Shown piece after piece: positions 1 through 19,132 of a DNA stretch of 20,713 nucleotides; the first letter of the stretch is position 1; each line of letters starts with the position of its first letter. The translations under genes were made by a program, and so were the position numbers. The stretch is from positions 1 to 20,713 of the IMG/VR virus record IMGVR_UViG_2703718869_000003, one strand, 5' to 3'. Under the pieces are notes generated by a model, which saw nothing but the letters and a program-made list of their open reading frames with translations, ran no database searches and was not told where the DNA came from. This DNA comes from a virus (taxonomy: Duplodnaviria > Heunggongvirae > Uroviricota > Caudoviricetes).

Positions 1-28
1 CTGGTCGCTGGTCGCTGGTCGCTGGTCT
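1..28. repeat. Heptamer tandem repeat (CTGGTCG) x3 plus one imperfect copy, truncated by the window edge
   Basis: Seen directly: ctggtcg ctggtcg ctggtcg ctggtct at positions 1-28. Context (coding or not) is unknown because the window starts inside it. Confidence 0.6.
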
Positions 29-210
29 GGCAGCATAAAATCATCCTTTTATGAAAATCAACGTTTTTTGAGCACTCGCACACAAAAAATTACCGCATTG
101 GTTGCAACGACAACCTGCATTTTGCGGAGCATATGACAAATAAAGTACGGGTGCGTTGAGGATGCCAGACACATCAGAGGTGGCGGGAGATTACTCCCCT
201 GCCTGGTCTC

Positions 211-366
211 TTACTTCTCAGATTCGTAGTCTACGAAGACAGCGACCTCCGTCTGGCCGGTTCGGATTCGTACCTCGCAGAAGTCTTTCCTCGTTACCAG
301 TGCTATCACTACGACGGTAATACAGATGACGATCAGGGCGATTAACATCGCCTTTTGCTGCTTCAT
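211..366 (-). CDS. hok: Hok/Gef-family small membrane toxin (type I toxin-antitoxin toxin), 51 aa
   Basis: Not in the ORF track (below its size cutoff). My translation of the minus strand gives MKQQKAMLIALIVICITVVVIALVTRKDFCEVRIRTGQTEVAVFVDYESEK. It has a hydrophobic N-terminal helix and the conserved RKDxCE...Y-E motif, and closely resembles HokD/RelF as I recall it. A GGAG ribosome-binding site lies about 9 nt upstream. Confidence 0.8.
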   Translation of the reverse strand: MKQQKAMLIALIVICITVVVIALVTRKDFCEVRIRTGQTEVAVFVDYESEK

Positions 367-565
367 AGCCTACTTCTCCTTGCCTTTCGGCACGTAAGAG
401 GCTAACCTAAGTTTGTAAGTCATAGATTTGGCCTCAGATTAATGTTAAGCGTCCTGCAAGACGCGTAATGTTAACTGGGGCTTTTCTCTGTCTGCCTTAC
501 GGCTGCATGCCCGAGGCAGACAGCCTCAAGCACCCGCAGCTATTCTACAGTAAAAACTCGCGCTT

Positions 566-991
566 TCAATTTCCCGCACGTCCGGCAAACTGACTGGCCT
601 GTGATCCTGATGGTTCACGCTCAACGTACCTGTCCATTTCCAGCTTTACTCCCTGCATGATCAACATCCCCTCAATAACACCTTCTGCTTTTTGCAGTAC
701 CCGCCCGGCCCAGCAATCAGAGCGCCCATGCTTACGGCCCAGTGACATAAGCGTCATCCCGAACACATAATAATCATACAGAAAATCATGCAAATCGCTG
801 TTGTTGACGTTCAGTTGCGCCATGCAATTGCTGATAATCAGCGCATCGTCATCGGTACACTGAGGCCGTGATTTAACCTTTGACGGGATCAGCCCCTTAA
901 ATCCGGCGGCAATGGGCGACCAGCTCACATCCTCATGATTATTGGCCACCCATGCGCCCCAGCGTTCAAGCACCTGCTGAATATCACGCAT
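566..991 (-). CDS. Q: Late-gene antiterminator Q (phage 82 / DLP12 QuuD type)
   Basis: From the internal Met, [45 protein letters not shown]... is nearly colinear with E. coli QuuD as I recall it. Position after ninG-ninH is canonical. The start is placed at the internal ATG (991) rather than the ORF-track start (1075), which would overlap ninH for about 90 nt. Confidence 0.85.
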
Positions 992-1184
992 CAGAGTCTT
1001 TACCCTTATCCCATCCACGATGGACCATAAGGACACCGTTGACGACGGCGTGCCGTTTGCCTTCTTTATCGCCAATATATTTTCTGACCGTGTTGCGACT
1101 ACAGTTCAGTATTCTGGCTACCTCGGTCTGATTTTCATATGCCTCAACGAGCATGTCAGGAATGGTTTTTACTGTGAACGTCAT
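984..1184 (-). CDS. ninH: NinH-like protein
   Basis: [58 protein letters not shown] matches lambda NinH almost residue for residue from memory. It overlaps ninG by 4 nt and the Q start by 8 nt. Confidence 0.85.
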
Positions 1185-1750
1185 GCGGCCTCACTTCTGC
1201 TGTTTCGCAGGTCTTTAAGTTTCTGCTGATACTTCGCCTTGATCGCCCTGCATTCTTCGACAGTCCAGCGATGGCGGTTATGGTTCGATTCGATTTCGTC
1301 TACTGCTTCCTGCCCGATGCGGTTAATCAGTTCGACGCGATACGGAACGAGATTTCCGCTTTTGTACTGGTTACACACCACGCATTGCTTATGGATATTG
1401 CGTTCATCAAATCTGAGCTGAGGTGCCGCAGCTGTTGTACGGTAATGGCCTGCATCCCACTGGGCTGAATCGAACGTCCCGCATGAAACACACGGCAAAT
1501 GACGGTCCCGCTCCCTGATATAAGCATTCACAGCCTGTTGTGCCTGCTTAATCCAGTAACTGCGGGGCTGTAAGTCCCTCCTGCGCGCTTTCAGCTTGTC
1601 TGCCTGCTCTTTTGCTGAAGCTATCGCCTTTTCTTTTCTGACCAGTTCCAGTGCGCACTGACCACAGCAAACTTTCTGATATGAGCGGAACGGCACAAAC
1701 GAGGAGCCGCACACTTTGCATTTTTTTGGTTTACGTTGCTTCATCATCAC
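1181..1750 (-). CDS. ninG: NinG/Rap-like recombination-promoting nuclease (structure-specific endonuclease)
   Basis: 189 aa with Cys clusters; the segment [30 protein letters not shown]...[65 protein letters not shown] matches lambda NinG as I recall it. Confidence 0.9.
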
Positions 1751-1751
1751 C

Positions 1752-2201
1752 TCAGAAAAACGACAGCAGGCGGTTATTCAGTTCAGGATTGTTTGAGCGC
1801 CCGAACACATGTTTTAACGCGGCATTAATCATTGCGTTGTAGCAACGTTCAAACTCATCCTGATCCATATTCGCGTAACTCAGGCTTTTTGCCCGATATC
1901 TCACCTCGCCTCTTATGGTTGTGACCACATCATAGAACCCGGCAAGAATTGTCAGATTTTTACGAAACTCATCAAACTGCGTCGCTTCATCAGAGAATTC
2001 GTATCCAGCATGTTCAGCGCACCAGTACTGAAAGCAGAAATTAAGAAAAGCGAACATCTTCCGGTGAAAAGATGGGTTACGGGTAAGTTTTGCTTCCAGT
2101 GTATACAGCTCACCGTTTTTAAATTTTGCCAGTCGGGGTAAATCGCGCTCATACGCCGGTACAAATACGCCATTAGCCGCCTTGATCATCTCTATTTCCA
2201 T
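1752..2201 (-). CDS. Phage protein, DUF1367-like (assignment from memory), function unknown
   Basis: 149-aa ORF coupled to its neighbours (1-nt gaps or overlaps) in the nin-region position. The family assignment is recollection only. Confidence 0.7.
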
Positions 2202-3172
2202 CAGGCAGCCTCCGCTTTGAATTTGCGCGTCAACACATGTTCACGGGCTTCACACCCCTGAATGAGCATGTCGTTAAAATCCGGCAAGTCAGGCCAGCGA
2301 ATGCTGACCTTCTCAACGTCATTACGACTCATGAGATTCTTATGCCCACATTTAAAGGCAGCCGCCAGACCTGCGCCGTGCTCATCATTGTCTGCAAAGA
2401 TAATCAGGTGATTAACGCCTGGTGGCGCAATAAACTTCTCCATAAAACCGGAGTTCATTGTTGACCACACATTGCAGCGGAAGATTTGACGGCATGAAAG
2501 CGCAGTTTCGATACCCTCGGCTATCCCCAGAGTGGACGACACCGGATACAGGCGTATTGCCACCGATTTGGCATGCTGCAAACCAGGCAACTCCTGTAGC
2601 GCGGTCATTTTTTTAGCCGCCTCTACATTCGCCTTGCGATCACCATCCAGCAACGTACGATGCAGATAGCAAAGAGAACCTCTGTCATCTGTTGCAATGG
2701 CGTAAATTGCCTGATATTCGCGCCCGCTGGCGATCTGACGGTCACAAAAACGCACGGATTCGGTCGGTAACTGGAGTATTCCCCTCCCCTGCAGGTACGC
2801 CTCACCTGTTGTGCCCCGCAGACACGGGAGTCCGGCAAACTTATCCATGACCAGCTCCCGCTTTCTGCTTATCTCTGTTACAGGCTGGCTGACTTTCTCC
2901 CTCTTCCAGGTATTTCCGATCAGCCGATCGATTTCATCACACAACGTCACCCAGGGCTTACCCGTGGCAAGTTGCAACAACTTCATCCCGTCCCCGTGAC
3001 CACAGACACAAATCCATGAACCGGAACAATCCTTATCATCACAGCGAAATTTACCTCTGGCACCACATATCGGGCAGGGGCCGCTATAATGTTTCAAGCC
3101 AGTAACAGGAGGCATGCCGTAATATTCAAAAATTCGCCCCCAATGCCCGGCCGCTGCCTTCTTAGTCTGCAT
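2201..3172 (-). CDS. DNA primase-like protein: N-terminal Cys-rich zinc ribbon plus Toprim domain
   Basis: Cys cluster CPICGARGKFRCDDKDCSGSWICVCGHGDG. Toprim-like acidic motifs IAEGIETALS and IIFADNDEHGAG. Overlaps the helicase gene by 11 nt. Confidence 0.8.
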   Translation of the reverse strand: MQTKKAAAGHWGRIFEYYGMPPVTGLKHYSGPCPICGARGKFRCDDKDCSGSWICVCGHGDGMKLLQLATGKPWVTLCDEIDRLIGNTWKREKVSQPVTEISRKRELVMDKFAGLPCLRGTTGEAYLQGRGILQLPTESVRFCDRQIASGREYQAIYAIATDDRGSLCYLHRTLLDGDRKANVEAAKKMTALQELPGLQHAKSVAIRLYPVSSTLGIAEGIETALSCRQIFRCNVWSTMNSGFMEKFIAPPGVNHLIIFADNDEHGAGLAAAFKCGHKNLMSRNDVEKVSIRWPDLPDFNDMLIQGCEAREHVLTRKFKAEAA

Positions 3173-4682
3173 GCTGGCCTCCTGTCATGGCTTTCTTGCG
3201 CCCTTTGGCATAGGCAATGGTCTTTGACTTGATGAAGTTGTACACTTCAACTGAGGTTTGCAGCGGCGCATTACTGAAGCCTTTAGGCCACACACCGAAC
3301 TTCTCCTTGTAGGTATGAGCGCACCATCCGTCACTCAGGGGTTTACCCGTCGCGTTGCGGTAATTCTGATAACCCTTGATCTCACTCCACCAACGCTGTT
3401 TTTCCTCACGGGTGTATTCGCGTTTCCCTTTGTTGACGCGTGAAAGCTTACGATCGCGATCTGTCGCCACGTCATCACCACCAAGTGGGCGAAATCCACA
3501 TTTGGGACACATGTGTACACCAGCAGGCTTCATGAAGTGGCATTTGGGGCATTCTCTGGGAAGTTTTTCAGCTTTAACCTCGCCACCGCCAGCAGACGCT
3601 TTCATTCCGTCATTTTTTCCCGGAAGTTCGTCATACTCGATATCCTCGGGGAAGCCCAGCCGATGAACCGTACCGGAATGGTCGAAAATCAATGCGCGTT
3701 TTTTACCAGACGCAGTACGTAACGCTCTCCCGATGCACTGCAACCAGCGGATTTCTGATTTGGTCGGACGGGCGTAGATCAGGCAGCGAACATCGCTGTC
3801 AAATCCCGCAACCAGTACGCCGACGTTGACAATTATTTTGGTCGCACCATCTTCAAAACGGCGAATGATATCCTGCCGTTCATCATGGGGGGTATCTGCC
3901 GTCATCACCTCTGCGCCAATGCCAGACTGTAAAAACTCACGGGTAACAAAGTTCGCATGAGCCACGTTCACGCAGAAGCAGATCGTCGGTAAATCCTCGC
4001 CATTCTCAAGCCAGTTGCTAACGATATCGCCAACCAGATCCGAACTCCCCATGATGGATGCGAGCTGTTCCTCGTTGTAATCCCGTCCAAATACGGTGTT
4101 ACTGGTTTTTACGCCAGTCAGATCAGGCATTGAGGGGGCAAAAAACTCGTAATCGCTCAGATCACCACGCTGAATAAGTTCACGAATCGTTGTAGGCTTG
4201 ATCAGGCATTCGTAGTACTTCCCCATCCAGGCTGCGAATGGGGTGCCGGAAAGTCCAAGAACCCTGATGTCTCTGTCCCGGATAACCTCAAGTAACGCAC
4301 GACGCTTCATGTGTGCTTCATCGATGATCAGCAGATCGATGTTGTCAGGAAACTCACGACGGATCAGCGTGTCGGCACTGGCAATCTGAATCAGTCGTGA
4401 CGGGTCATAGTTAGGGTGATCACGCCATACAAAACTGATTTCTTCCCACGGTAAACCGTATTCGGTGAAACGTTCCGCTGTCTGGTTCAGCAGGATGGTG
4501 TACGGACAGACAAACATCACCCGCATACCACGTTCAACCATTCCGGCGGTGACGAATGCTGCAAGACCAGTTTTGCCAGAGCCAGTGGGTGCGTACATCA
4601 AGTACGTGCGATGCTGTTTCCACTGGTGCCGCAGCTGGTTTAAACCGCGCTCCTGAGCAAAGTTTGGGATTATTTTCAGCAT
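3162..4682 (-). CDS. Superfamily-2 (DEAH-type) replicative helicase with C-terminal Cys4 zinc finger
   Basis: Walker A APTGSGKT, motif II LLIIDEAH, and CPKCHF...CPKCGF Cys4 pair. 506 aa. Sits in the position of lambda O/P. Confidence 0.9.
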   Translation of the reverse strand: MLKIIPNFAQERGLNQLRHQWKQHRTYLMYAPTGSGKTGLAAFVTAGMVERGMRVMFVCPYTILLNQTAERFTEYGLPWEEISFVWRDHPNYDPSRLIQIASADTLIRREFPDNIDLLIIDEAHMKRRALLEVIRDRDIRVLGLSGTPFAAWMGKYYECLIKPTTIRELIQRGDLSDYEFFAPSMPDLTGVKTSNTVFGRDYNEEQLASIMGSSDLVGDIVSNWLENGEDLPTICFCVNVAHANFVTREFLQSGIGAEVMTADTPHDERQDIIRRFEDGATKIIVNVGVLVAGFDSDVRCLIYARPTKSEIRWLQCIGRALRTASGKKRALIFDHSGTVHRLGFPEDIEYDELPGKNDGMKASAGGGEVKAEKLPRECPKCHFMKPAGVHMCPKCGFRPLGGDDVATDRDRKLSRVNKGKREYTREEKQRWWSEIKGYQNYRNATGKPLSDGWCAHTYKEKFGVWPKGFSNAPLQTSVEVYNFIKSKTIAYAKGRKKAMTGGQHAD

Positions 4683-5062
4683 GACGCCCCCTTGCTACGT
4701 GATTTACCCGTTGCCGGGATCACGTCGATCTCATCGCTAACGTATTGATCCGGATTACGTGAACAGCGCAGAAGCACGATACCAGGAATGCCGTATAGCT
4801 TGAGTCTGCGCAGTTTCAGTATTGAACGTGCCCGTGGTGACGCTCTGTCCACCTCGATCGCGCACCGTTCACCAGATGGGGCAACGACCATGATATCGAC
4901 GAATCCGCGCTTACCGTTGCCCATATCAACCAGATAATTACGTTCGATCGCCAGTCCGGCATCACGCAATTTGGCAGCCAGCACATAATCAAACGTGACC
5001 TTGTCTTTTCCGGTGTAGAATTTGTTTCCGAGCAGGCTGATAACCACATGTTTGATGAACAT
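4676..5062 (-). CDS. Hypothetical protein, first gene of the replication cluster; possible PD-(D/E)xK-like fold (speculative)
   Basis: 128-aa ORF overlapping the helicase start by 7 nt. The segment GFVDIMVV...CAIEVDR loosely resembles a nuclease-like beta-strand motif; this is weak. Confidence 0.6.
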   Translation of the reverse strand: MFIKHVVISLLGNKFYTGKDKVTFDYVLAAKLRDAGLAIERNYLVDMGNGKRGFVDIMVVAPSGERCAIEVDRASPRARSILKLRRLKLYGIPGIVLLRCSRNPDQYVSDEIDVIPATGKSRSKGASC

Positions 5063-5283
5063 GGTACTATTTCCACTGTGATAGTTAGCACAATAATAAT
5101 TTCGCCAGAAACTATCGCGCCCTATACAGTGATCTACCTAACCTATGGAGCTGCCTTCCTCTGGTAGTGCCCTTACGGGCACGGATGTTACAGATCTGCC
5201 CCCTTGCCCCCTTCTTAGTAAAATTTCAAGCCAAATAATTTCACATGAAATTATTTCACAAAAAATAATCACCTTGATGAGGT

Positions 5284-5565
5284 CTATTCCTTCCGTATCG
5301 CTACTGGCGAAAGCATCCAGCCACGGCTGGCTCTCGCGTACTTCTGGACATACACCCGTAACCGGGTGTTGGCGCTCCGTCTTGCCCTGTTGCCCTTCCT
5401 GAACGATACAGGCTCCTTGTCCCACTCTTCCTGGTACACTCTCGCGTACTCTGCTGCAATTTTTACCCGGGTGGTCGGGTCTAGCTGTAACAATTGCTCC
5501 TGTATCCAGTCCCGATCAGCATCACAGTACTGCTCGGGCATAACCATTTTGATTTGCCTGTTCAC
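5284..5565 (-). CDS. Hypothetical protein in the cII position, basic C-terminus
   Basis: 93-aa ORF with a GTG start preceded by GGAGG at 5-nt spacing, 30 bp downstream of the cro stop. No sequence similarity to lambda CII that I can recognise. Confidence 0.6.
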   Translation of the reverse strand: MNRQIKMVMPEQYCDADRDWIQEQLLQLDPTTRVKIAAEYARVYQEEWDKEPVSFRKGNRARRSANTRLRVYVQKYARASRGWMLSPVAIRKE

Positions 5566-5595
5566 TCACACCTCCGATGGGCTGTGTGTCCAGGA

Positions 5596-5798
5596 TTAAT
5601 CATCGCCTCTTACGAACGCAGGGAACGGTCGAACCTCTTCCGCCTCAACTCTGCCGTCATCAAAGGTTTTGACGTAAATTTCACGTCCGACAAGAAGCGC
5701 TTTACTGATCGCGCTCTGCGCCACACCAAAGTCCTTAGCGGCTTTCTTCTGACCGAACCTGTATACGTAATCAGCCAGGGTCTCTTTTTTCATCGCCA
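5596..5798 (-). CDS. cro: Cro repressor
   Basis: From the Met at 5798, [60 protein letters not shown] parallels lambda Cro (…[35 protein letters not shown]…AEEVKPFP). GAAGGAG ribosome-binding site 7 nt upstream. Divergent from cI. Confidence 0.9.
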
Positions 5799-5821
5799 TA
5801 ACTGACTCCTTCAAAATGCCC

Positions 5822-5894
5822 ATATCATTACGCACAGTTATTAAAATGTCAACACCGCAGATATTTCATTACATATAACCAAAGGTGATATGGT
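5822..5894. promoter_or_regulatory. oR-like operator/promoter region: three candidate operators, leftward pR for cro (-35 TTGACA on the minus strand at 5847-5852), rightward pRM for cI
   Basis: 75-bp divergent intergenic region. Sites at about 5822-5838 (ATATCATTACGCACAGT), 5848-5864 (TCAACACCGCAGATATT) and 5874-5890 (ATAACCAAAGGTGATAT) carry lambda-like half-sites (CACCGC / GGTGATA) at roughly 26-bp spacing. The cI ATG lies at the edge, consistent with a leaderless transcript. Confidence 0.55.
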
Positions 5895-6608
5895 ATGAAC
5901 ATGAAAAAGAAACCGTTAACCCCTGAGCAACTGGAAGACGCCAAGCGTCTGAAAAGTATTTTTAACGCTAAAAAGAAAGAGTTAGGCCTGTCGCAGGAAT
6001 CATTAGCCTATGAATTAGGTGTTACCCAAAGCGCTGTTAATCAGCTAATGGCTGGCATCAACGCCATAAATGCCAGCCACGCAGCACAGCTTGCTAAGAT
6101 ACTGAATGTAAAGGTCGGAGATTTCAGTCCCAGCCTGGCAAAATCTATTGCAGAAATGGCGCTCGCAATTGAAGAGCCATTAACTCGTGTCCCCGCTTAC
6201 GAATATCCGTTACTCTCCTGCGTACAAGCTGGCGCATTCTCAATGGATGATATTTCGTACACCGCAAAAGATGCGATTAAATGGATCTCCACCACCACAA
6301 AAGCCAGTGACAGGTCGTTCTGGCTGGAGGTCAAGGGGCATTCAATGACCGCACCGCAGGGTGGTAAACCCAGCTTCCCTGAAGGTATGCTGATACTCGT
6401 TGACCCTGAACGGGAAATCGAGGATGGCGATTTTTGCGTGGCCCGAATGAACGGCGATGAATTTACCTTCAAACGATTCATTCGTGAGAGCGGTAAAGCG
6501 TACCTGGAGCCGCTCAACCCACGATTCGACATGATTGAGTGTAACGAAAACTGCCAGTTTGTCGGAAAGGTCATCAAATCGCAGTGGAATGATGAGACTT
6601 TTGATTGA
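5895..6608 (+). CDS. cI: CI repressor (lambda cI-like; HTH N-domain plus S24 LexA-like autopeptidase C-domain)
   Basis: Starts [38 protein letters not shown]. Ala-Gly cleavage context VQAGAFS. C-domain [32 protein letters not shown]...[11 protein letters not shown] is close to lambda cI. Confidence 0.95.
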
Positions 6609-6621
6609 GCTCACAGAGTGA

Positions 6622-6662
6622 TTTGACATCCTTCACGCCTGCAGAATGTGGAGGATGTCAAA
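6622..6662. promoter_or_regulatory. 10-bp perfect inverted repeat (TTTGACATCC ... GGATGTCAAA) flanking a 21-nt spacer that contains CTGCAG (6639-6644); embedded TTGACA hexamers
   Basis: Seen directly in the cI-methyltransferase intergenic region, 40-80 bp upstream of the methyltransferase ATG. A second imperfect hairpin lies at about 6664-6688. Confidence 0.5.
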
Positions 6663-6702
6663 AGCACGTTGGCATCATCATGCCACGTAAAGAGGATTAG
6701 TT

Positions 6703-8172
6703 ATGCTTCAAAAGCTAGACGTCGCAGACAGCGTGCGTCGCGAGCTGTCTCCCCGTACCGCGCGTAAACACAAAGCTGAGTTCGGCCAGTTCATGACGCC
6801 TTCTGGCGTGGCCCGTTTTATGGCCTCCTTGTTTCCACCGAGCACAATGAAAACTTGCCGTCTACTGGACGCAGGCGCTGGTGTAGGCGCACTGTCTTGC
6901 GCCTTCCTCGACCGTTGGCTGGTTGGCGAGTTTGGCTTTGAGTCTGTCGAGGCAACAGCCTACGAAATAGACAAAAAGCTGTGTGGTCACCTTGCGAAGC
7001 ACTTAACCGGGTACAGGAGAGTGACGCCCCGCATCATCGAAGGGGATTATATTGAGCTGGCAACCGCCGAAGGTCTACAGGATCGAGGTTATACCCATGC
7101 AATACTTAATCCGCCTTACAAGAAGATCAATAGCCAGTCAGCCCACCGGCAGGCTCTTCGCACTGTCGGTATCGAGACGGTAAATCTGTATTCCGCCTTT
7201 GTTGCACTGGCTGTAGGTGAGGTTGCACCTGGCGGGCAGATAGTGGCCATAATCCCACGTAGTTTCTGCAACGGACCGTATTACCGTCCGTTCCGTAATT
7301 TCATACTTGAGCGGGCAGCAATCCGCCATATTCATTTGTTCGAATCACGTAGCAAAGCTTTCAGGGATGACGATGTGTTGCAGGAAAATATTATCATCCG
7401 CCTGGAGCGTGGAGGCCTTCAGGAGGCTGTTACAGTCACAACTTCGACCGATGATAGCTTTTTTGACCTGGTCACCTACGAACACCCATTTGACCAAATT
7501 GTGTACCCGGACGATTCGGAGCGGTTTATTCATGTGCCGACCACGCACGAGAAAAGCGCCATTGAGTTATCATCCGCCGTACAATGTTCGCTGGCTGATA
7601 TTGGCGTGAAGGTATCGACCGGACCGATAGTTGATTTCCGACTGAAAGCTCATTTGCGCAGCATGCCCGAAGAAGGAACTGTTCCCCTGATCTACCCGAG
7701 CCATTTGAGTATGAGTAGCACTGTCTGGCCTGTGGAAGGTTTGAAGAAACCCAACGCAATCATGCGCAACGACGAGACAGAAAAGTGGCTTTACCCGAAC
7801 GGTTTTTATTGTGTGGTGCGTCGTTTCTCGTCGAAGGAGGAAAAGCGCCGAGTGGTAGCAAGCGTCGTTGATCCTGCTACCTTCAGTGAGTATTCAGTGT
7901 TGGGATTTGAAAATCACATGAACGTGTTTCATGAGAACAAACATGGGTTACCCGAGGCGCTGGCCCGTGGCTTGGCCGTGTTCCTGAACACTACCGCAGT
8001 GGATAAGTATTTCCGTCGATTCAACGGGCATACACAGGTCAATGCAACCGACCTCAAGATGATTAAGTACCCAAGCCGTGACACTCTGATAGAGCTTGGC
8101 AAGTGGGCTATGCAACAAGAAACTCTCACGCAAGAACATATTGACGCTAAGCTAGGAGCTCTGACTGCATGA
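6703..8172 (+). CDS. N6-adenine DNA methyltransferase (NPPY class); putative M subunit of a PstI/BsuBI-like type II restriction-modification system
   Basis: FxTP motif (FGQFMTPSGVARFM), AdoMet-binding LLDAGAGVGAL, catalytic NPPY (HAILNPPYKK). 489 aa, about the size I recall for M.PstI/M.BsuBI. AAGAGG ribosome-binding site. Confidence 0.85.
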   Translation: MLQKLDVADSVRRELSPRTARKHKAEFGQFMTPSGVARFMASLFPPSTMKTCRLLDAGAGVGALSCAFLDRWLVGEFGFESVEATAYEIDKKLCGHLAKHLTGYRRVTPRIIEGDYIELATAEGLQDRGYTHAILNPPYKKINSQSAHRQALRTVGIETVNLYSAFVALAVGEVAPGGQIVAIIPRSFCNGPYYRPFRNFILERAAIRHIHLFESRSKAFRDDDVLQENIIIRLERGGLQEAVTVTTSTDDSFFDLVTYEHPFDQIVYPDDSERFIHVPTTHEKSAIELSSAVQCSLADIGVKVSTGPIVDFRLKAHLRSMPEEGTVPLIYPSHLSMSSTVWPVEGLKKPNAIMRNDETEKWLYPNGFYCVVRRFSSKEEKRRVVASVVDPATFSEYSVLGFENHMNVFHENKHGLPEALARGLAVFLNTTAVDKYFRRFNGHTQVNATDLKMIKYPSRDTLIELGKWAMQQETLTQEHIDAKLGALTA

Positions 8173-9122
8173 ACAACCAAAATGATTATATTGAGGCCGC
8201 TCAGCAAATTATAGCATCCTTAGGCCTGCCCAGAGCGCAGCAGAATGAGCGTTCTGCTTTGTGTTTGCTGGCACTCCTGAACCTCACACCGGGAAAAGCA
8301 TGGGCCAACGCGGAAAATCCGCTTGTGGGCATTACACCAATCATGAATTGGGTTCGGGAGCACTACGGCAAGGTCTACGCACCCAATACTCGTGAGACAT
8401 TCCGCCGCCAGTCTATGCATCAGTTCTGCGCTGCTGGAGTAGCCCTCTACAATCCGGACAAGCCCGATCGCCCAGTGAACAGCCCGAAGGCTGTTTATCA
8501 GATCGAACCTGCTGCTCTGTCCATGCTACGCACTTTCGGCAGCCCGGCATGGCACGATAGCCTTGCAACCTATTTAGCCGAGCGTGAAACGCTGGTTACC
8601 CGCTATGCTAAGGAGCGCGAACAGAATCGTATCCCTGTTGAAATTGCTGCGGGCCAGCAAATAACCCTCAGTCCCGGCGAGCACAGCGAACTTATCCGTG
8701 CCATAATAGAGGACTTCGCCCCACGTTTTGCTCCGGGTAGCGTGCTGGTCTATGCTGGCGACACTGGCGAAAAGTGGGGCTACTTCGACGCTCCACTGCT
8801 GGCCGGGCTAGGTGTTGATGTGGATTCACACGGTAAAATGCCAGATGTGGTGCTACATTTTACTGCGAAAAACTGGCTGCTACTGGTTGAGTCTGTCACC
8901 AGTCATGGACCGGTTGATGGGAAGCGGCATGCTGAGCTTGCCAGGCTGTTTGCCGGATCAACAGCCGGACTTGTCTATGTGACCGCTTTTCCAAATCGCT
9001 CCATCATGGGACGATATCTTGGTGAAATCGCATGGGAAACAGAGGTATGGGTGGCTGATGCACCTTCTCATCTTATTCACTTCAACGGAGTACGATTTCT
9101 TGGCCCCTACTCTACTGAATGA
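8169..9122 (+). CDS. Putative type II restriction endonuclease, BsuBI/PstI family (assignment by size, synteny and motif; not verified)
   Basis: 317 aa. Start overlaps the methyltransferase stop (ATGA). Contains a PD...E-like segment (GKMPDVVLHF...NWLLLVESVTSHG). Followed by an intrinsic terminator. Confidence 0.55.
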   Translation: MNNQNDYIEAAQQIIASLGLPRAQQNERSALCLLALLNLTPGKAWANAENPLVGITPIMNWVREHYGKVYAPNTRETFRRQSMHQFCAAGVALYNPDKPDRPVNSPKAVYQIEPAALSMLRTFGSPAWHDSLATYLAERETLVTRYAKEREQNRIPVEIAAGQQITLSPGEHSELIRAIIEDFAPRFAPGSVLVYAGDTGEKWGYFDAPLLAGLGVDVDSHGKMPDVVLHFTAKNWLLLVESVTSHGPVDGKRHAELARLFAGSTAGLVYVTAFPNRSIMGRYLGEIAWETEVWVADAPSHLIHFNGVRFLGPYSTE

Positions 9123-9142
9123 GTACAGGACCAGATAAATAG

Positions 9143-9169
9143 CCCGGCCCATGCGCCGGGTTTTTCTTT
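9143..9169 (+). terminator. Rho-independent terminator ending the cI/methyltransferase/endonuclease transcription unit
   Basis: Stem CCCGGC (9143-9148) / GCCGGG (9155-9160), 6-nt loop, then TTTTTCTTT. Confidence 0.65.
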
Positions 9170-9249
9170 GCATATCCCCTCCTGCTATCTGTCCCCTTCA
9201 AAAATAAATCACTTTAAAAATCAGTTAAGTAATATTTTCTTGCCCACAA

Positions 9250-9293
9250 TAACCACCAACGGTATTTACACAAAAATCACCGCAAGTTATATT
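9250..9293 (+). promoter_or_regulatory. pL-like promoter with overlapping oL-like operators
   Basis: -35 TTTACA (9265-9270), 17-bp spacer, -10 TATATT (9288-9293). The spacer contains AATCACCGCAAGTTAT, a lambda-operator-like half-site; an upstream ATAACCACCAACGGTAT is a second candidate. Confidence 0.5.
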
Positions 9294-9372
9294 TATTTCA
9301 AGCCAGAAACATCGCGCCCTTACACAGGGCTACATAAATCAGTCGTACGGCGCGACTTAACCCGCCGCAAAA

Positions 9373-9385
9373 TGCTCTTTAACAA
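9373..9385 (+). promoter_or_regulatory. boxA-like element (TGCTCTTTAACAA), identical to the E. coli rrn boxA core as I recall it
   Basis: Exact string about 80 nt downstream of the putative pL start; possible nutL-type or rrn-type antitermination site. Confidence 0.4.
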
Positions 9386-9689
9386 TCTGGAGCTTTACAG
9401 CGTCAATGACCTGTTTAGACCCCTACACGTAAACGTGCTGTATCATCGGGTGCGATCCGGTCGATGAGAGAGTATCCCCGCGCGAGAGCGAGAACGGCGT
9501 GAGAACGGGCAACACTGGCAGGAAGTTGGCGCTGACCAATACAGGGAAGGTTTTGGGGTGCAGGCAGCACCGCCAAAGCATTTCCGAGAAAGGATGGTAT
9601 TGACTGCGTGTGATGTCGGGGCTATATTTGGCGAACACCTCATAAAACGGGTGTCGGGATTAGGACCCCGCTGACAATCGAGGCGATAC

Positions 9690-9711
9690 AGACGCGCTAG
9701 CGTCTTTTTTT
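9690..9711 (+). terminator. Rho-independent terminator (tL-like) in the pL leader
   Basis: Stem AGACGC / GCGTCT with GCTA loop, followed by a run of 7 T. Confidence 0.7.
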
Positions 9712-9876
9712 GTATCGACATGCACGCACATCTTATCAATGGTGGGCTGTATGGGGCCGACTTCGGTCGGGCTGGTTCCCTTGATTGCCAGTAGTCCTAA
9801 CCCTGTACAGTCCACCGCCAGCGAGTTTAGGACCTCCGGCGGTGGTTATCAATCACCAATCAAGGAGGCTGCCACC

Positions 9877-10521
9877 ATGGCTACTATATCTCCCCTTTCT
9901 CGCCCATCCGTAACTATTGAAAACGGCAATGCCATCACTACGTCAATTGACATCGCAGAGTTCTTTGAGAAGCAGCATCACCATGTTGTTCAGAAAATAG
10001 AATCCCTTGAATGCTCTGAACAATTCTTAACCAGCAACTTTTCGCGGGTTAAATTCGAACACCGGGGTAATACCTATAACGCCTATCAAATCACCAAAAA
10101 CGGCTTCGTCTTCCTGGTGATGGGCTTCACTGGTAAAAAAGCCGCCGCTTTCAAAGAAGCCTACATCGCTGAATTCGATCGCATGGAAAAACAGCTATGG
10201 GAACAGAAACAACTGGCCCTGTCTTCTCCTGCGATGAATATCAATTTCCCTTTGTCGTGGTTTTCTGAGCATCACCCCTACGCCACGATGAATTATGTTG
10301 ATCGAAAAACATTGCAGCTTGATACCTCCGTCTTATTCGACATGCCAAGCCCTGCAATGCGCATATTTAATGAATTACGTCGCAACGGCTATAACGTTGA
10401 CGCCGCTGTCGCTGAATTTAACGCCTTCAAACATCTGACGGAAGAAATGCGCCGTACACTACAGGATATTTCAAGATTGTCAGATCAAAATGCCCGAAAA
10501 GGCTTCTCTGTAAGCCTCTAA
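9877..10521 (+). CDS. Rha-family phage regulatory protein / antirepressor-like, with a C-terminal domain shared with the next gene
   Basis: Start chosen at the ATG at 9877 (AAGGAGG 8 nt upstream) rather than the ORF-track start at 9739. N-terminal region ITTSIDIAEFFEKQHHHVVQKIE...YQITKNGFVFLVMGF resembles the Rha family from memory. Confidence 0.75.
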   Translation: MATISPLSRPSVTIENGNAITTSIDIAEFFEKQHHHVVQKIESLECSEQFLTSNFSRVKFEHRGNTYNAYQITKNGFVFLVMGFTGKKAAAFKEAYIAEFDRMEKQLWEQKQLALSSPAMNINFPLSWFSEHHPYATMNYVDRKTLQLDTSVLFDMPSPAMRIFNELRRNGYNVDAAVAEFNAFKHLTEEMRRTLQDISRLSDQNARKGFSVSL

Positions 10522-10637: not shown

Positions 10638-10790
10638 TGCCTGTTCACAGGTATCGCCATATCAATGGCGGGTCGAGAGAGCCTAATACAACACCCTTTC
10701 GGGAAATACGCTCCGCCGTCTGACGCGGTAGTTGAAGCCCGCCACCCCACTAAGGTGGCAGTCAATACTAAAACGTCAGGAGTCATGATT

Positions 10791-11429
10791 ATGGCTAATC
10801 AACTCATCCCCGTATTCAACGGCACCATATCCAACGAAACAACTCTTTTAGTTAACGCTCGTGATCTACATTCTTTTCTTGGTGTGGGCAGAATGTTCGC
10901 GCACTGGGTTAAAGAGCGCATTGCTGAATATGGATTCGTTGAAAGCCAGGACTATATTTTGATTTGCCAAAATGGGCAAACCAAAGGTCGAGGAGGTAAT
11001 CGCCGTAGCAAGGACTACCACCTAACTCTCGACACAGCCAAAGAGCTGGCAATGGTTGAGCGCAACGAAAAAGGCCGCCAGATACGCCGCTACTTCATTG
11101 AGTGCGAGAAAAAGTTTCGCCAGAGTCTTTTACCTACACCAATGAACATCAACTACCCTCTCTCGTGGTTCTCAGATAACCATCCCTACGCCACGATGAA
11201 CTATGTTGATCGCAAGGTTATCAGCCTTGATGCTTCCGTGCTCTTCGATATGCCAAGCCCAACTATGCGCATCCTCAACGAGCTACACAGCAAGGGCTAT
11301 AACGTCGATGCAGCTGTCGCCGAATTTAACGCCTTCAAGCATCTGACGGAAGAAATGCGCCGTAAATTGCTGGATATTTCCCGCACATCGGAAAAGTCTT
11401 CCCGCTTTGGTTTCAACGTAAATCTTTAA
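10791..11429 (+). CDS. AntA/AntB-type antirepressor-like protein, with the same C-terminal domain as the Rha-like gene
   Basis: Start at 10791 (AGGAG 8 nt upstream). N-terminal LIPVFNGTISNETTLLVNARDLHSFLGV...QDYILICQNGQTKGRGGNRRSKDYHLTLDTAKELAMVERNEKGRQIRRYFIECEK resembles AntA-type antirepressors from memory. The C-terminal 95 aa is a paralogue of the Rha-like C-terminus. Confidence 0.75.
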   Translation: MANQLIPVFNGTISNETTLLVNARDLHSFLGVGRMFAHWVKERIAEYGFVESQDYILICQNGQTKGRGGNRRSKDYHLTLDTAKELAMVERNEKGRQIRRYFIECEKKFRQSLLPTPMNINYPLSWFSDNHPYATMNYVDRKVISLDASVLFDMPSPTMRILNELHSKGYNVDAAVAEFNAFKHLTEEMRRKLLDISRTSEKSSRFGFNVNL

Positions 11430-15033: not shown

Positions 15034-15855
15034 ATGTCTCAGTTAGATAGCAATGCCATTAAAGAAATTGTAAAACTCACCACTACTGCTTTTTCTGGTG
15101 AAAATTTGCCGCTTACGGAATGCCCTGTTGCGTTATTGCCGGACAATGTAAATATCGAAAGTCTGGAACGATTCATGACAGAACGTTTTCGTTTCCGTGG
15201 AGTCATGACCACAACCAGTATTGATGACTTTGTTGAATACAGCAAAGGGTATGCCGATGAGCACTCCCGCTGCTTCATTAACGCGGAAACGATGAAAGCA
15301 GTCACTGTGTTCAATATCGGCACTCTGGAGCAACCTGGACACGCTGACAACAAGGCACTGCTGGAACTGAAAGCCACATCACCATATCGCGCATTGCTTG
15401 AGGTGGACGGCAAAAAACAACTCCAGAAATCTCTCGCTGAATGGCTGGAAGACTGGGCCGACTTCCTCACAGCCTGTGACAGCGACGGTAATGTGCTGGA
15501 TATCAAACAGGCTATCTCTGCTGTCCGTCGTCTTACCATCGACGCAAAACGCAGTGCTGAATATGAAGAGCAAAACTTCAGCGGTAGCCGCTCAGTCATG
15601 GAGTCCGTTGAGGCTAAAAGCAAAGAAATCATGCCTGCCACTTTCCGCTTTGAATGCATCCCATACGAGGGCCTGGGCAACAGGGAATTCACGCTGCGAT
15701 TAAGCATTCTGACAAGCGAACAACCTGTTCTGGTGCTACGTATCGTGCGTGTTGAAGCTGCGGAAGAAGAAATTGCCAAAGAGTTCCGTGACCTGCTGAA
15801 AGAGCGTTTCGAAGAAGAAGATATCTTAACCTTCATCGGCACGTTCTCAGTGTGA
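15034..15855 (+). CDS. DUF2303 / YfdQ-like prophage protein (assignment from memory)
   Basis: 273-aa ORF with protein-like composition. The fully antisense 267-aa ORF (15039-15842) is Ser/Arg-rich and judged spurious. Confidence 0.7.
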   Translation: MSQLDSNAIKEIVKLTTTAFSGENLPLTECPVALLPDNVNIESLERFMTERFRFRGVMTTTSIDDFVEYSKGYADEHSRCFINAETMKAVTVFNIGTLEQPGHADNKALLELKATSPYRALLEVDGKKQLQKSLAEWLEDWADFLTACDSDGNVLDIKQAISAVRRLTIDAKRSAEYEEQNFSGSRSVMESVEAKSKEIMPATFRFECIPYEGLGNREFTLRLSILTSEQPVLVLRIVRVEAAEEEIAKEFRDLLKERFEEEDILTFIGTFSV

Positions 15856-16515: not shown

Positions 16516-17394
16516 ATGAGCACTCATCATGTTGTGAGTTTTTCAGGCGGTCGGACATCGGCGTACCTCGTCCACCTTATGGAGCAACGCAGAAAAGCTG
16601 GTGAAAACGTTCATTACATACTCATGGATACGGGATGTGAACACCCGCTGACGTACCGATTTATTCGGGAGGTTGTGAAGTTCTGGGATATTCCGCTAAC
16701 CGTGTTGCAGGTCGATATAAATCCAGAGCTTAGGCAGCCAAATGGTTATACGGAATGGGAACCAAAGGATATTCAGACGCGAATGCCGGTGCTTAAACCG
16801 TTTATGGACATGGTAAAAAAATATGGCACGCCATACATCGGCGGCGCGTTCTGCACTGACAGATTAAAACTCACCCCCTTCACAAAATACTGCGATGACC
16901 ATTTCGGACAAGGGAACTACATCACGTGGCTGGGTATTCGTGCAGACGAACCCCGTAGGCTGAAACCGAAACCGGGCGTCCGGTATCTTGCCGAACTGTC
17001 AGATTTTGATAAGTCGGATGTTATCCGGTGGTGGCGAAAACAACCTTTTGATTTGCAAATCCCGGAGCACCTCGGGAACTGTGTTTTCTGCATCAAAAAG
17101 TCAACGCAAAAGCTGGGGCTTGCATGTAAAGACGAACCTGGTCTGATGCGGGTTTTTAATGAACTGGTTACAGGCAAACACGTCAGGGATGGTCATCGCA
17201 GAACAGGTAAAGACGTTATGTACCGTGGTCACCTGACGCTTGACGGGATTGCCAGGATGTATGCCGACAGCGACTACAGCAATTTGTATCAAGCGATGGT
17301 GCTGGCCAAGCGGTTTGATACTGGTTCGTGTTCCGAATCATGTGAAATCTGGGGTGACCAATTGGAGTTGAAATTCGAAGAGGTAGTGGCATGA
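16516..17394 (+). CDS. Phosphoadenosine-phosphosulfate (PAPS) reductase-family protein (PP-loop ATP pyrophosphatase fold)
   Basis: N-terminal PP-loop VVSFSGGRTSAYL. 292 aa. First gene of a chain of start/stop-overlapping ORFs. Confidence 0.8.
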   Translation: MSTHHVVSFSGGRTSAYLVHLMEQRRKAGENVHYILMDTGCEHPLTYRFIREVVKFWDIPLTVLQVDINPELRQPNGYTEWEPKDIQTRMPVLKPFMDMVKKYGTPYIGGAFCTDRLKLTPFTKYCDDHFGQGNYITWLGIRADEPRRLKPKPGVRYLAELSDFDKSDVIRWWRKQPFDLQIPEHLGNCVFCIKKSTQKLGLACKDEPGLMRVFNELVTGKHVRDGHRRTGKDVMYRGHLTLDGIARMYADSDYSNLYQAMVLAKRFDTGSCSESCEIWGDQLELKFEEVVA

Positions 17395-17594: not shown

Positions 17595-17826
17595 ACAGAA
17601 CGAAAAATCTATCGCTCAAATTGCTGAGTATATCCCGCGTACGTGCCGGGGTATGCAGTTGCAGGAAGCCAAAGCGCGCCTGGAGAAAAAAATTGCGCTC
17701 TATATCGATGACGGCTGTGATGCTGCCGTTCTTAACGCGGCTTTCGCACCAGCTCTTAACTGTCATACGCGGGAATCTTTTTTTTCGTGCATCGCAGCGC
17801 AGATCCACAAAGGAGGCAACCAGTGA
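17587..17826 (+). CDS. Hypothetical small protein ending in ...KGGNQ
   Basis: 79-aa ORF. Its 3' end carries the conserved junction CAAAGGAGGCAACCAGTGAGC that forms the start of the next gene. Confidence 0.5.
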   Translation: MFKQNEKSIAQIAEYIPRTCRGMQLQEAKARLEKKIALYIDDGCDAAVLNAAFAPALNCHTRESFFSCIAAQIHKGGNQ

Positions 17827-18587
17827 GCAAAATTGACTATCAGGTATTGCGTGACGTGTCGGAACGCGCAATTACAGCGATGACACATCTGTCAATATTA
17901 CCAGGTGATGATGATTTATTAAGCGAAAAGAAGCTCAAGGAGCTTGGTATTGATATTGATGCGATTCACGCCTTTAAAATTATGGCCGGGCCAGAAACCG
18001 TGCTGTCACTACTGGATGAACGAGATGCATTAAACGAACGCATGGCCGAACTGGAGGCTAATTTAGCGAAGCTGGCCGAAGACCAACAGAAAGCGATTGA
18101 GTCAATTAAGCAGGCTGATTCGGCTGTTAAGTTGGCACACGAGAAGTTTTCGGCTCTGGCGGCGGAGAATGCGGAGTTGAAGGCCTTCAAAACAGCAGTT
18201 TATCAGCAGATGGGCGTCGGATGTGATGCTCCTGAATTCTCCATTACGGTAGGTTTGAGTAACTTACGTCGTTTTGCTGACACACTCCACGCCATTGAGC
18301 GTGAGTTCTTTACCAAAGAGCTACCTGATGAAGAGCACGAAGGCGAAACATTCAATGAATGTCCACTTAGCTGGGGAATGAGCGTCGAACAGTACGTTTC
18401 CGAGTTTCGCAAATGCCTGGCTGAAGTACGGGCGCAGGGCGTGGAGATGCTGGCAAAAAATCATCAGAGTATCGTCAATGCACTTAAGGGAGATTCTTTA
18501 TTTTCTGATGGTGAATACCGGCATGCAATTATCGCTTCCGCAGCAACATCTTTCGCCGCTGAGCTTCGCAAAGGAGGCAACCAGTGA
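17823..18587 (+). CDS. Ea22-like protein (coiled-coil), GTG start
   Basis: GTG at 17823 preceded by AGGAGG at 6-nt spacing. N-terminus VSKIDYQVLRDVSERA. Central heptad-like region (LNERMAELEANLAKLAEDQQKAIESIKQ). Ends ...LRKGGNQ. Confidence 0.7.
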   Translation: MSKIDYQVLRDVSERAITAMTHLSILPGDDDLLSEKKLKELGIDIDAIHAFKIMAGPETVLSLLDERDALNERMAELEANLAKLAEDQQKAIESIKQADSAVKLAHEKFSALAAENAELKAFKTAVYQQMGVGCDAPEFSITVGLSNLRRFADTLHAIEREFFTKELPDEEHEGETFNECPLSWGMSVEQYVSEFRKCLAEVRAQGVEMLAKNHQSIVNALKGDSLFSDGEYRHAIIASAATSFAAELRKGGNQ

Positions 18588-19132
18588 GCGAAATTAATTA
18601 CCAGGCACTGCGTGAGGCGGCAGTAGCAATTGAAACAGTAGCAACGCCTCAAAAATTGCTGGCATTTCGTATGAAAGCCACACCTCAGGTTGTGCTGGCG
18701 CTACTGGATGAGTTGGAAGCAGCAAAATCAAAACTCAACGAGCAGCGTGAGTATTACGAGGGAGTAATCGCGGATGGAAGTAAGCGCATAGCCGAACAGG
18801 AGAAAAGCGAAGAGCAACTCATTAATGAGCGTGACCATGCTGAGTCTGCTTTAGCTGATATGTATTTTGCAGCAACCGGGGACAGGCCGGAATGGAGTAA
18901 CTGTTTCAGTTTTTCAGATGCAGTAGATGCCGTGGTTGACAGAATTGCTGATTTAGAAGCTAAACAGGCATCGCCAGTAGTACCGGAAGAACTGATTAAA
19001 GCAGTGCGCTTTTATGAACAGGTAAAGCGTGAGAATCCATCTGTTGAAACCGGAGCATGGAAAGACGCTGTTGACTGGGTACTCAAAGAGGCTTGCCAGG
19101 CTGTAAGCATTCGCATCAAAGGAGGTGAGTAA
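18584..19132 (+). CDS. Ea22-like protein (second copy, divergent)
   Basis: MSEINYQALREAAV...AKSKLNEQREYYEGVIADGSKRIAEQEK resembles lambda Ea22 from memory. Same GTGA-overlap junction as the previous gene. Confidence 0.7.
   Translation: MSEINYQALREAAVAIETVATPQKLLAFRMKATPQVVLALLDELEAAKSKLNEQREYYEGVIADGSKRIAEQEKSEEQLINERDHAESALADMYFAATGDRPEWSNCFSFSDAVDAVVDRIADLEAKQASPVVPEELIKAVRFYEQVKRENPSVETGAWKDAVDWVLKEACQAVSIRIKGGE

Follow-up and report, generated by a model that had tools for sequence, protein, structure and literature searches.

RM.EcoGIII, a PstI-like type II restriction-modification (RM) system located on a Shiga toxin (Stx) phage, methylates and cleaves CTGCAG (PMC6602927). We found an allele of this system in a 20,713-nt stretch of a Caudoviricetes virus (positions 1 to 20,713 of IMG/VR record IMGVR_UViG_2703718869_000003; the whole stretch is referred to below as the window), which represents the early region of a lambdoid prophage. 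Here, a gene for a gamma-type N6-adenine DNA methyltransferase (M; 6703..8172, + strand, 489 aa) is followed by a gene for a BsuBI/PstI-family type IIP restriction endonuclease (R; 8169..9122, + strand, 317 aa), the two corresponding to M.EcoGIII and R.EcoGIII, respectively. The pair is a real PstI-type RM system, an EcoGIII allele of Stx phages, and is already known: papers on the system date back to about 2012, and its genes are routinely annotated. With regard to its setting, the cassette is very probably cargo of the immunity operon of an Oslovirus-type, Stx-phage-like lambdoid prophage, where it would methylate and cut CTGCAG and would most likely be read together with the repressor gene cI from the promoter pRM.

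The activity of RM.EcoGIII has been described in several backgrounds. In two lysogens, CTGCAG was 100% methylated (all 2,390 or 2,434 sites; PMC6602927; PMC4659465), and the same two papers describe protection against lambda-like phages and, after deletion of EcoGIII in O104:H4, changes in approximately 1,950 host transcripts. In O145 strain RM13514, which has the cassette on an Stx2a prophage, 98.8% of CTGCAG was methylated, compared with 0% in strain RM13516 without the cassette, and the R gene of RM13514 was identical to that of the biochemically active C227-11 enzyme (PMC3893438). Also, the cloned system restricted the entry of a pESBL plasmid approximately 10^4-fold and did not cut an A-modified site, in assays that were run from a vector promoter (pBAD18Kn) (PMC7736820; PMC4288162). 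A 2015 paper had remarked that "PST2" Stx2a phages carry the system in their early region (PMC4587872). In the present analysis, CTGCAG specificity and protection by N6-methyladenine were drawn from published work on proteins with 99% identity (PMC6602927, PMC3893438 and PMC7736820), and the results of Fang et al. 2012 (Nat Biotechnol) are quoted via papers describing them.

Both proteins and their genomic context were nearly identical to the Stx2 phage system of O104:H4. M shared 485 of 489 residues with ORF31 of P13374, the phage of the 2011 E. coli O104:H4 outbreak, and R shared 316 of 317 with ORF30 of this phage, which amounts to five amino acid substitutions in all (four in M and one in R); R was also 99% identical to C227-11 protein C22711_2126. 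At the DNA level, identity to the O104:H4 phage system was 99.0% over window positions 5800-9795 (1-3996 of the query 5800-9800). Moreover, the window matched the published EcoGIII rare-codon positions codon for codon (AUA15, CCC21 and AGA22 in R, CUA5 and CCC17 in M; PMC6456624). The block comprising cI, M, R and the terminator was detected in 97 phage records at 95-99% identity, including P13374 and phiON-2011 (O104:H4), TL-2011c (O103:H25), phi191, Ss-VASD and the O157 phages PA2 and PA8, whose records annotate the genes as BsuBI or PstI methylase and endonuclease; for P13374, TL-2011c, phi191 and Ss-VASD the identity was 99%. The best phage match of the window was GER2. No diverged PstI-family nuclease was found among 50,697 phage records, all 98 matches being at least 95% identical. 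In E. coli, the cassette occurred in 139 of 5426 complete genomes, always on the chromosome, and its DNA was 100% identical in strains E2855 and 09-00049. An earlier note, made from the sequence of this DNA without database searches, had proposed a genuine RM pair of the PstI/BsuBI family; this assignment was borne out, the pair being RM.EcoGIII, a name that the note did not know.

Analysis of the individual proteins supported the same assignment. M contains the motifs FMTP (residues 30-33), LLDAGAGVGAL (54-64) and NPPY (136-139), as read from its translation, and matched the PADLOC MTase_II profile over its full length (1-489, E 3.9e-248). It thus has the S-adenosylmethionine-binding and NPPY motifs of a cognate methyltransferase, in a gene that adjoins the nuclease gene. 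The sizes of the two open reading frames (ORFs), the ATGA overlap between them and these motifs had all been read correctly in the earlier note, which had also expected a match to the Pfam family N6_Mtase. The protein does belong to an N6-adenine methylase family, but the Pfam domain detected was of the Eco57I type (E 3.3e-9). The other expectation, that the second ORF would match both domains of the BsuBI/PstI endonucleases, held: R had the N-terminal helix-turn-helix domain BsuBI_PstI_RE_N at residues 7-143 (E 1.7e-54) and the catalytic domain BsuBI_PstI_RE at residues 155-307 (E 4.6e-61), both far over the gathering scores, as well as a match to the full-length PADLOC REase_II profile (E 3.5e-168).

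In addition, the SdaI crystal structure (2ixs) matched R along its whole length, residues 14-322 with residues 8-315 of R, at E 6e-77. The P-D...E core is common to both enzymes, with D226 and E241 in R (residues 226-246, window 8844-8909), and K251 and K253 of SdaI align with T244 and H246 of R. Judging from this alignment, and considering that a member of the family is reported to be active, the catalytic lysine of R may sit elsewhere. The presence of T244 at the position of SdaI K251 might also be taken to indicate that the pair in the window is a remnant, either inactive or orphan, with only the methylase functional or with a dead nuclease, and remnants do exist among relatives, such as that in phage PhiR12_3, which keeps only residues 214-317 of R. 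However, active EcoGIII has T244 too, neither ORF is truncated, their products are 99% identical to active enzymes, and the cassette is conserved without a single difference in the two strains mentioned above. We consider a remnant extremely improbable.

The two genes overlap by ATGA, the R start codon (8169-8171) lying over the M stop codon TGA (8170-8172). This arrangement is compatible with translational coupling. A Shine-Dalgarno-like AGGAG (8154..8158, + strand) is located within the 3' end of M, 10 nt before the R ATG, and the RNA of the junction folded no better than its shuffled versions (z +0.77), showing no structure beyond chance. On the basis of this score, a junction structure that sequesters the Shine-Dalgarno site, as a sign of obligatory coupling, was rejected. 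Because R has its own AGGAG and the junction has no structure beyond chance, coupling and the "methylase first" timing, in which methylation would precede restriction, are left as conjecture.

The genes that surround the cassette have the layout of a lambdoid immunity region. Those for Q, NinG, the primase, the helicase and Cro are all on the - strand, and the + strand contains cI (5895..6608), M and R, in this order. The cI product (Pfam HTH_3 and Peptidase_S24, i.e., a helix-turn-helix plus an S24 peptidase) is a full-length homologue of lambda cI and matched the lambda repressor structure 3bdn at E 4.8e-92 (residues 3-236). On the other side, cro (5596..5800, - strand; Pfam Cro, E 4.9e-33) probably starts at ATG 5800-5798, which has AAGGAG ahead of it. 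The divergent oR/pR/pRM region between cro and cI (5801..5894) was recognized by promoter scan and operator half-sites: a pR-like TTGACA-17-AATGAT is present at 5852-5824 on the - strand, and lambda-like half-sites (TATCACCGC-type) at 5850-5866 and 5874-5890. Downstream of R, an intrinsic terminator of the immunity operon (9141..9170, + strand), consisting of a G+C-rich 8-bp stem and a U-run, is followed by a candidate pL identified by promoter scan (TTTACA-17-TATATT, 9265..9293, + strand). A lambda-like operator, AATCACCGCAAGTTATA, occupies positions 9275-9291, exactly between the hexamers of this candidate. Further downstream is a nutL-like leader (9373..9560, + strand) with a boxA-like TGCTCTTTA at 9373-9381, which was 94% identical to the annotated nutL region of phi80. 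A 2015 paper failed to find operators in this phage group (PMC4587872), and the candidate lambda-like operators and pL are a small addition for it. No N-like ORF was recognized among the listed ORFs downstream of the nutL-like leader.

This layout agrees with three further points of the earlier note: the pair shares its strand with cI and fills the interval from the cI stop to the terminator ahead of the pL/oL-like site, i.e., the position of lambda rexAB; a terminator and then pL follow it; and no terminator separates it from cI. In the 94-nt gap between cI and M (6609-6702), a scan detected no terminator-like site on the + strand. The gap does contain two hairpins without U-tracts, which the note had not mentioned: an inverted repeat with a 15-16 bp stem at the end of the cI module (6622..6662, + strand) and a second, small hairpin (6666-6688) in the cassette leader (6666..6702, + strand), which also contains the methylase Shine-Dalgarno GAGG (6692-6695). 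Similarly, neither the scan nor inspection by eye found a sigma-70 promoter-like site on either strand of the gap, and a promoter of the cassette's own at this location was rejected. Since the cassette has no recognizable promoter, is not preceded by a + strand terminator-like site after cI and uses the operon terminator, cotranscription with cI appears most likely. The absence of promoter and terminator fits read-through from pRM, although it is no proof of it. Indirect evidence in the same direction comes from the complete CTGCAG methylation published for lysogens (PMC6602927).

Alternatively, the cassette could be autonomous, with a promoter in the 3' end of cI or one that uses the TTGACA in the left arm of the first hairpin (6623-6628), such that its expression would be independent of pRM and of lysogeny. 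Own promoters are the rule among type II systems. However, no -10 element with the required A2 and T6 was found 16-18 nt past this TTGACA, the scan of 6609-6702 was empty, the hairpin belongs to the cI module and is retained beside unrelated cargo, and the cassette's own leader is just 40 nt long. The activity of the plasmid-cloned system under the pBAD18Kn vector promoter is uninformative on this question. Taken together, an autonomous cassette seems distinctly unlikely to us. Nevertheless, several points weigh against the interpretation of the pair as an active cargo read from pRM. The stable hairpin downstream of cI might attenuate the transcript or lead to its processing; Rho-dependent termination is not amenable to scoring; a promoter inside cI, or one that departs from the consensus, could also be present; R has an AGGAG of its own and a junction that folds like shuffled sequence; and the window allele differs at four residues in M and one in R, so that the activity of this very copy is presumed from its similarity to the active enzymes. 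No transcript-mapping study of this operon was found in the literature searched.

The first hairpin was further compared among relatives. For the RNA of 6600-6710, the folding energy is -37.3 kcal/mol (z -3.5), and the stem at 6622-6662 is kept, with differing loops, across four cargo/loop variants. In the window, the loop contains CTGCAG (6639-6644), the target of the cassette itself, in a near-central position. The loop has CTGAAG in P13374 and CCCTGAAG in O103/Lyz12581Vzw, and an unrelated loop is present in PhiR12_3 and STEC1585. The loop CTGCAG is a window-specific single-base polymorphism, absent from all relatives examined, and no regulatory feature; methylation-sensitive autoregulation through this site was rejected, as the site is not conserved. 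Avoidance of CTGCAG in the 20.7-kb window was also considered and rejected, since the two sites observed do not differ significantly from the 6.3 expected. As for the stem, one might suggest that it acts in RNA processing or attenuation, adjusting the level of the cargo, including a potentially lethal nuclease, relative to cI, or that it is a recombination boundary for swapping defence cargo; we regard this suggestion as rather doubtful.

Comparison with related prophages showed that the cassette fills an exchangeable slot whose left edge is the conserved cI hairpin and whose right edge is the shared operon terminator. The flanks of prophages with other cargo are identical to those of the window, on the left as far as the cI hairpin and on the right beginning with the terminator. 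On the left, the boundary matches the 3' arm of the 6622-6662 hairpin, homology to relatives with other cargo stopping at 6662-6667, which leaves only 40 nt between the boundary and the M ATG. On the right, it falls on the base with which the terminator stem begins. For example, the STEC1585 prophage is homologous to window positions 2611-6667, and its homology resumes at 9143 and extends to 9560; its slot contains an unrelated 245-aa ORF (L006 4080-4817), which had no Pfam or PADLOC match and is a candidate for a lysogen-expressed function. Phage PhiR12_3 is homologous up to 6662 and again from 8806; its slot is filled with approximately 160 bp of other sequence and no more of R than the last third, and a junction of this type was found in five E. 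coli genomes at >99% identity and full coverage. In O103:H2 12009 and phage Lyz12581Vzw, the slot has the same RM genes (approximately 95% DNA identity, as measured for O103:H2 12009) together with two extra ORFs between the nuclease gene and pL (L004 5695-6545 in 12009 and L003 4986-5836 in Lyz12581Vzw). One of them has a SocA/Panacea domain (E 4.5e-22) and the other, of 126 aa, had no match; together they probably form a toxin-antitoxin pair, which would be a second cargo of this slot.

Phages of the Lyz12581Vzw type also differ from the window within cI. They share the RM cassette and the C-terminal half of cI (from window position 6197), and the cI of Lyz12581Vzw/O103:H2 12009 has a different N-terminal, DNA-binding half in place of window 5895-6196. 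This places a recombination breakpoint inside cI and means that the cargo also exists alongside a second type of immunity.

A query of joined flanks detected no empty slot in the 5426 E. coli genomes, only the variant with the R remnant, and the cassette was present in 139 of the 147 genomes that have these flanks. The exact slot boundaries, a slot that is never empty and sometimes has other cargo, and the lack of a promoter of the cassette's own are modest additions of the present analysis.

With regard to function, M would place an N6-methyl group on the adenine of CTGCAG across the lysogen chromosome. Like SdaI, the endonuclease has a winged-helix DNA-binding domain at its N terminus and a nuclease domain of the PD-(D/E)XK type at its C terminus; it would cut unmethylated CTGCAG in entering phage or plasmid DNA. 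Transcription would proceed with cI from pRM and, on infection, from the establishment promoter as well, like that of rexAB in lambda; the cassette would in this way be active in the lysogen, where the repressed early operons are silent. A defence role of this prophage-borne system, as the earlier note had proposed, is in line with the published CTGCAG methylation in lysogens and restriction of phages and plasmids by 99%-identical genes. It has also been recognized, notably by Kobayashi and colleagues, that type II systems can act as addiction modules. The main selected role of the cassette could accordingly be prophage addiction through post-segregational killing, epigenetic reprogramming of the host, or both, rather than defence; the transcript changes after EcoGIII deletion in O104:H4 and the high occupancy of the slot in flank-bearing genomes point in this direction. 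On the other hand, restriction of lambda-like phages and plasmids has been demonstrated, and natural decay variants of the PhiR12_3 type in five genomes indicate that loss is survivable. Neither role would exclude defence, and we consider it somewhat unlikely that they, and not defence, were the main target of selection. A phage-borne system of this kind shields Stx lysogens against plasmids and other phages, and it rewrites the methylome and transcriptome of the host.

Several additional features were observed elsewhere in the window. Beyond the nutL-like leader, an isrK-type Hfq-binding small RNA (9635-9710, + strand; Rfam, 64 bits, over the gathering score) has TTGACT-17-TATATT upstream (9600-9628) and a terminator at its end (9690-9712). 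It is directly followed by a P1-type C4 antisense RNA (9735-9822, + strand; Rfam, 79 bits, over the gathering score). The latter overlaps the 5' end of a 260-aa Rha/Ash ORF, and because of this overlap the real start of the ORF is probably further downstream. The arrangement of the small RNA and C4 looks like an immI-like antirepressor control module, located where lambda has N. The Rha-domain ORF (9739-10521) and an AntA-domain ORF (10665-11429) share a paralogous C-terminal segment of approximately 90 aa (10234-10472 and 11142-11380, + strand), NI(N/Y)xPLSWFS...HPYATMNYVDRK..., which was seen in the translations and in BLAST cross-matches. In the pL operon, a 292-aa ORF (16516-17394, + strand) has a PAPS-reductase domain (E 1.6e-8). 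A DUF2303 ORF is present at 15034-15855, and Ead/Ea22-like ORFs at 17787-19132. At the other end of the window, a hok/sok toxin-antisense module (211-366 and 361-535, - strand; Hok/gef Pfam E 7e-22, sok Rfam 118 bits) lies beyond the Q antiterminator gene (566-1075, - strand).

Among known systems, the PstI genes are divergently transcribed, and SdaI recognizes an 8-bp site, CCTGCAGG. PstI of Providencia stuartii and BsuBI of Bacillus subtilis share with the window both family Pfam domains and an NPPY N6-adenine methylase and, according to the EcoGIII literature, CTGCAG specificity; unlike these systems, the cassette is phage-borne, with M and R in tandem, a 4-base overlap and no promoter of its own. 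SdaI (2ixs) is homologous to R over its full length and has the P-D...E core in common, but its two lysines, K251 and K253, correspond to T244 and H246. The rexA-rexB genes of lambda are expressed in the lysogen and exclude other phages. Their slot and strand are the same, with a homologous cI ahead of them and the terminator and then pL behind them. Neither protein of the pair matched a Rex family in Pfam, NCBIfam or PADLOC, and the pair is a positional analogue only of rexAB. The two also differ in mode of action, rexAB working by abortive infection and the cassette by DNA restriction, and cotranscription with cI is proven for rexAB, whereas for the cassette it is deduced from the organization of the operon. 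The annotation of phi80 gives the order cI, gene 40A, oL/pL, nutL and N, with gene 40A as the cargo of the same slot. The closest counterpart is RM.EcoGIII itself (O104:H4 C227-11; P13374, TL-2011c, phi191, Ss-VASD and the PA2/PA8 "PST2" phages), which has the same genes, the same cI, the same position, the same terminator and the same pL leader as the window.

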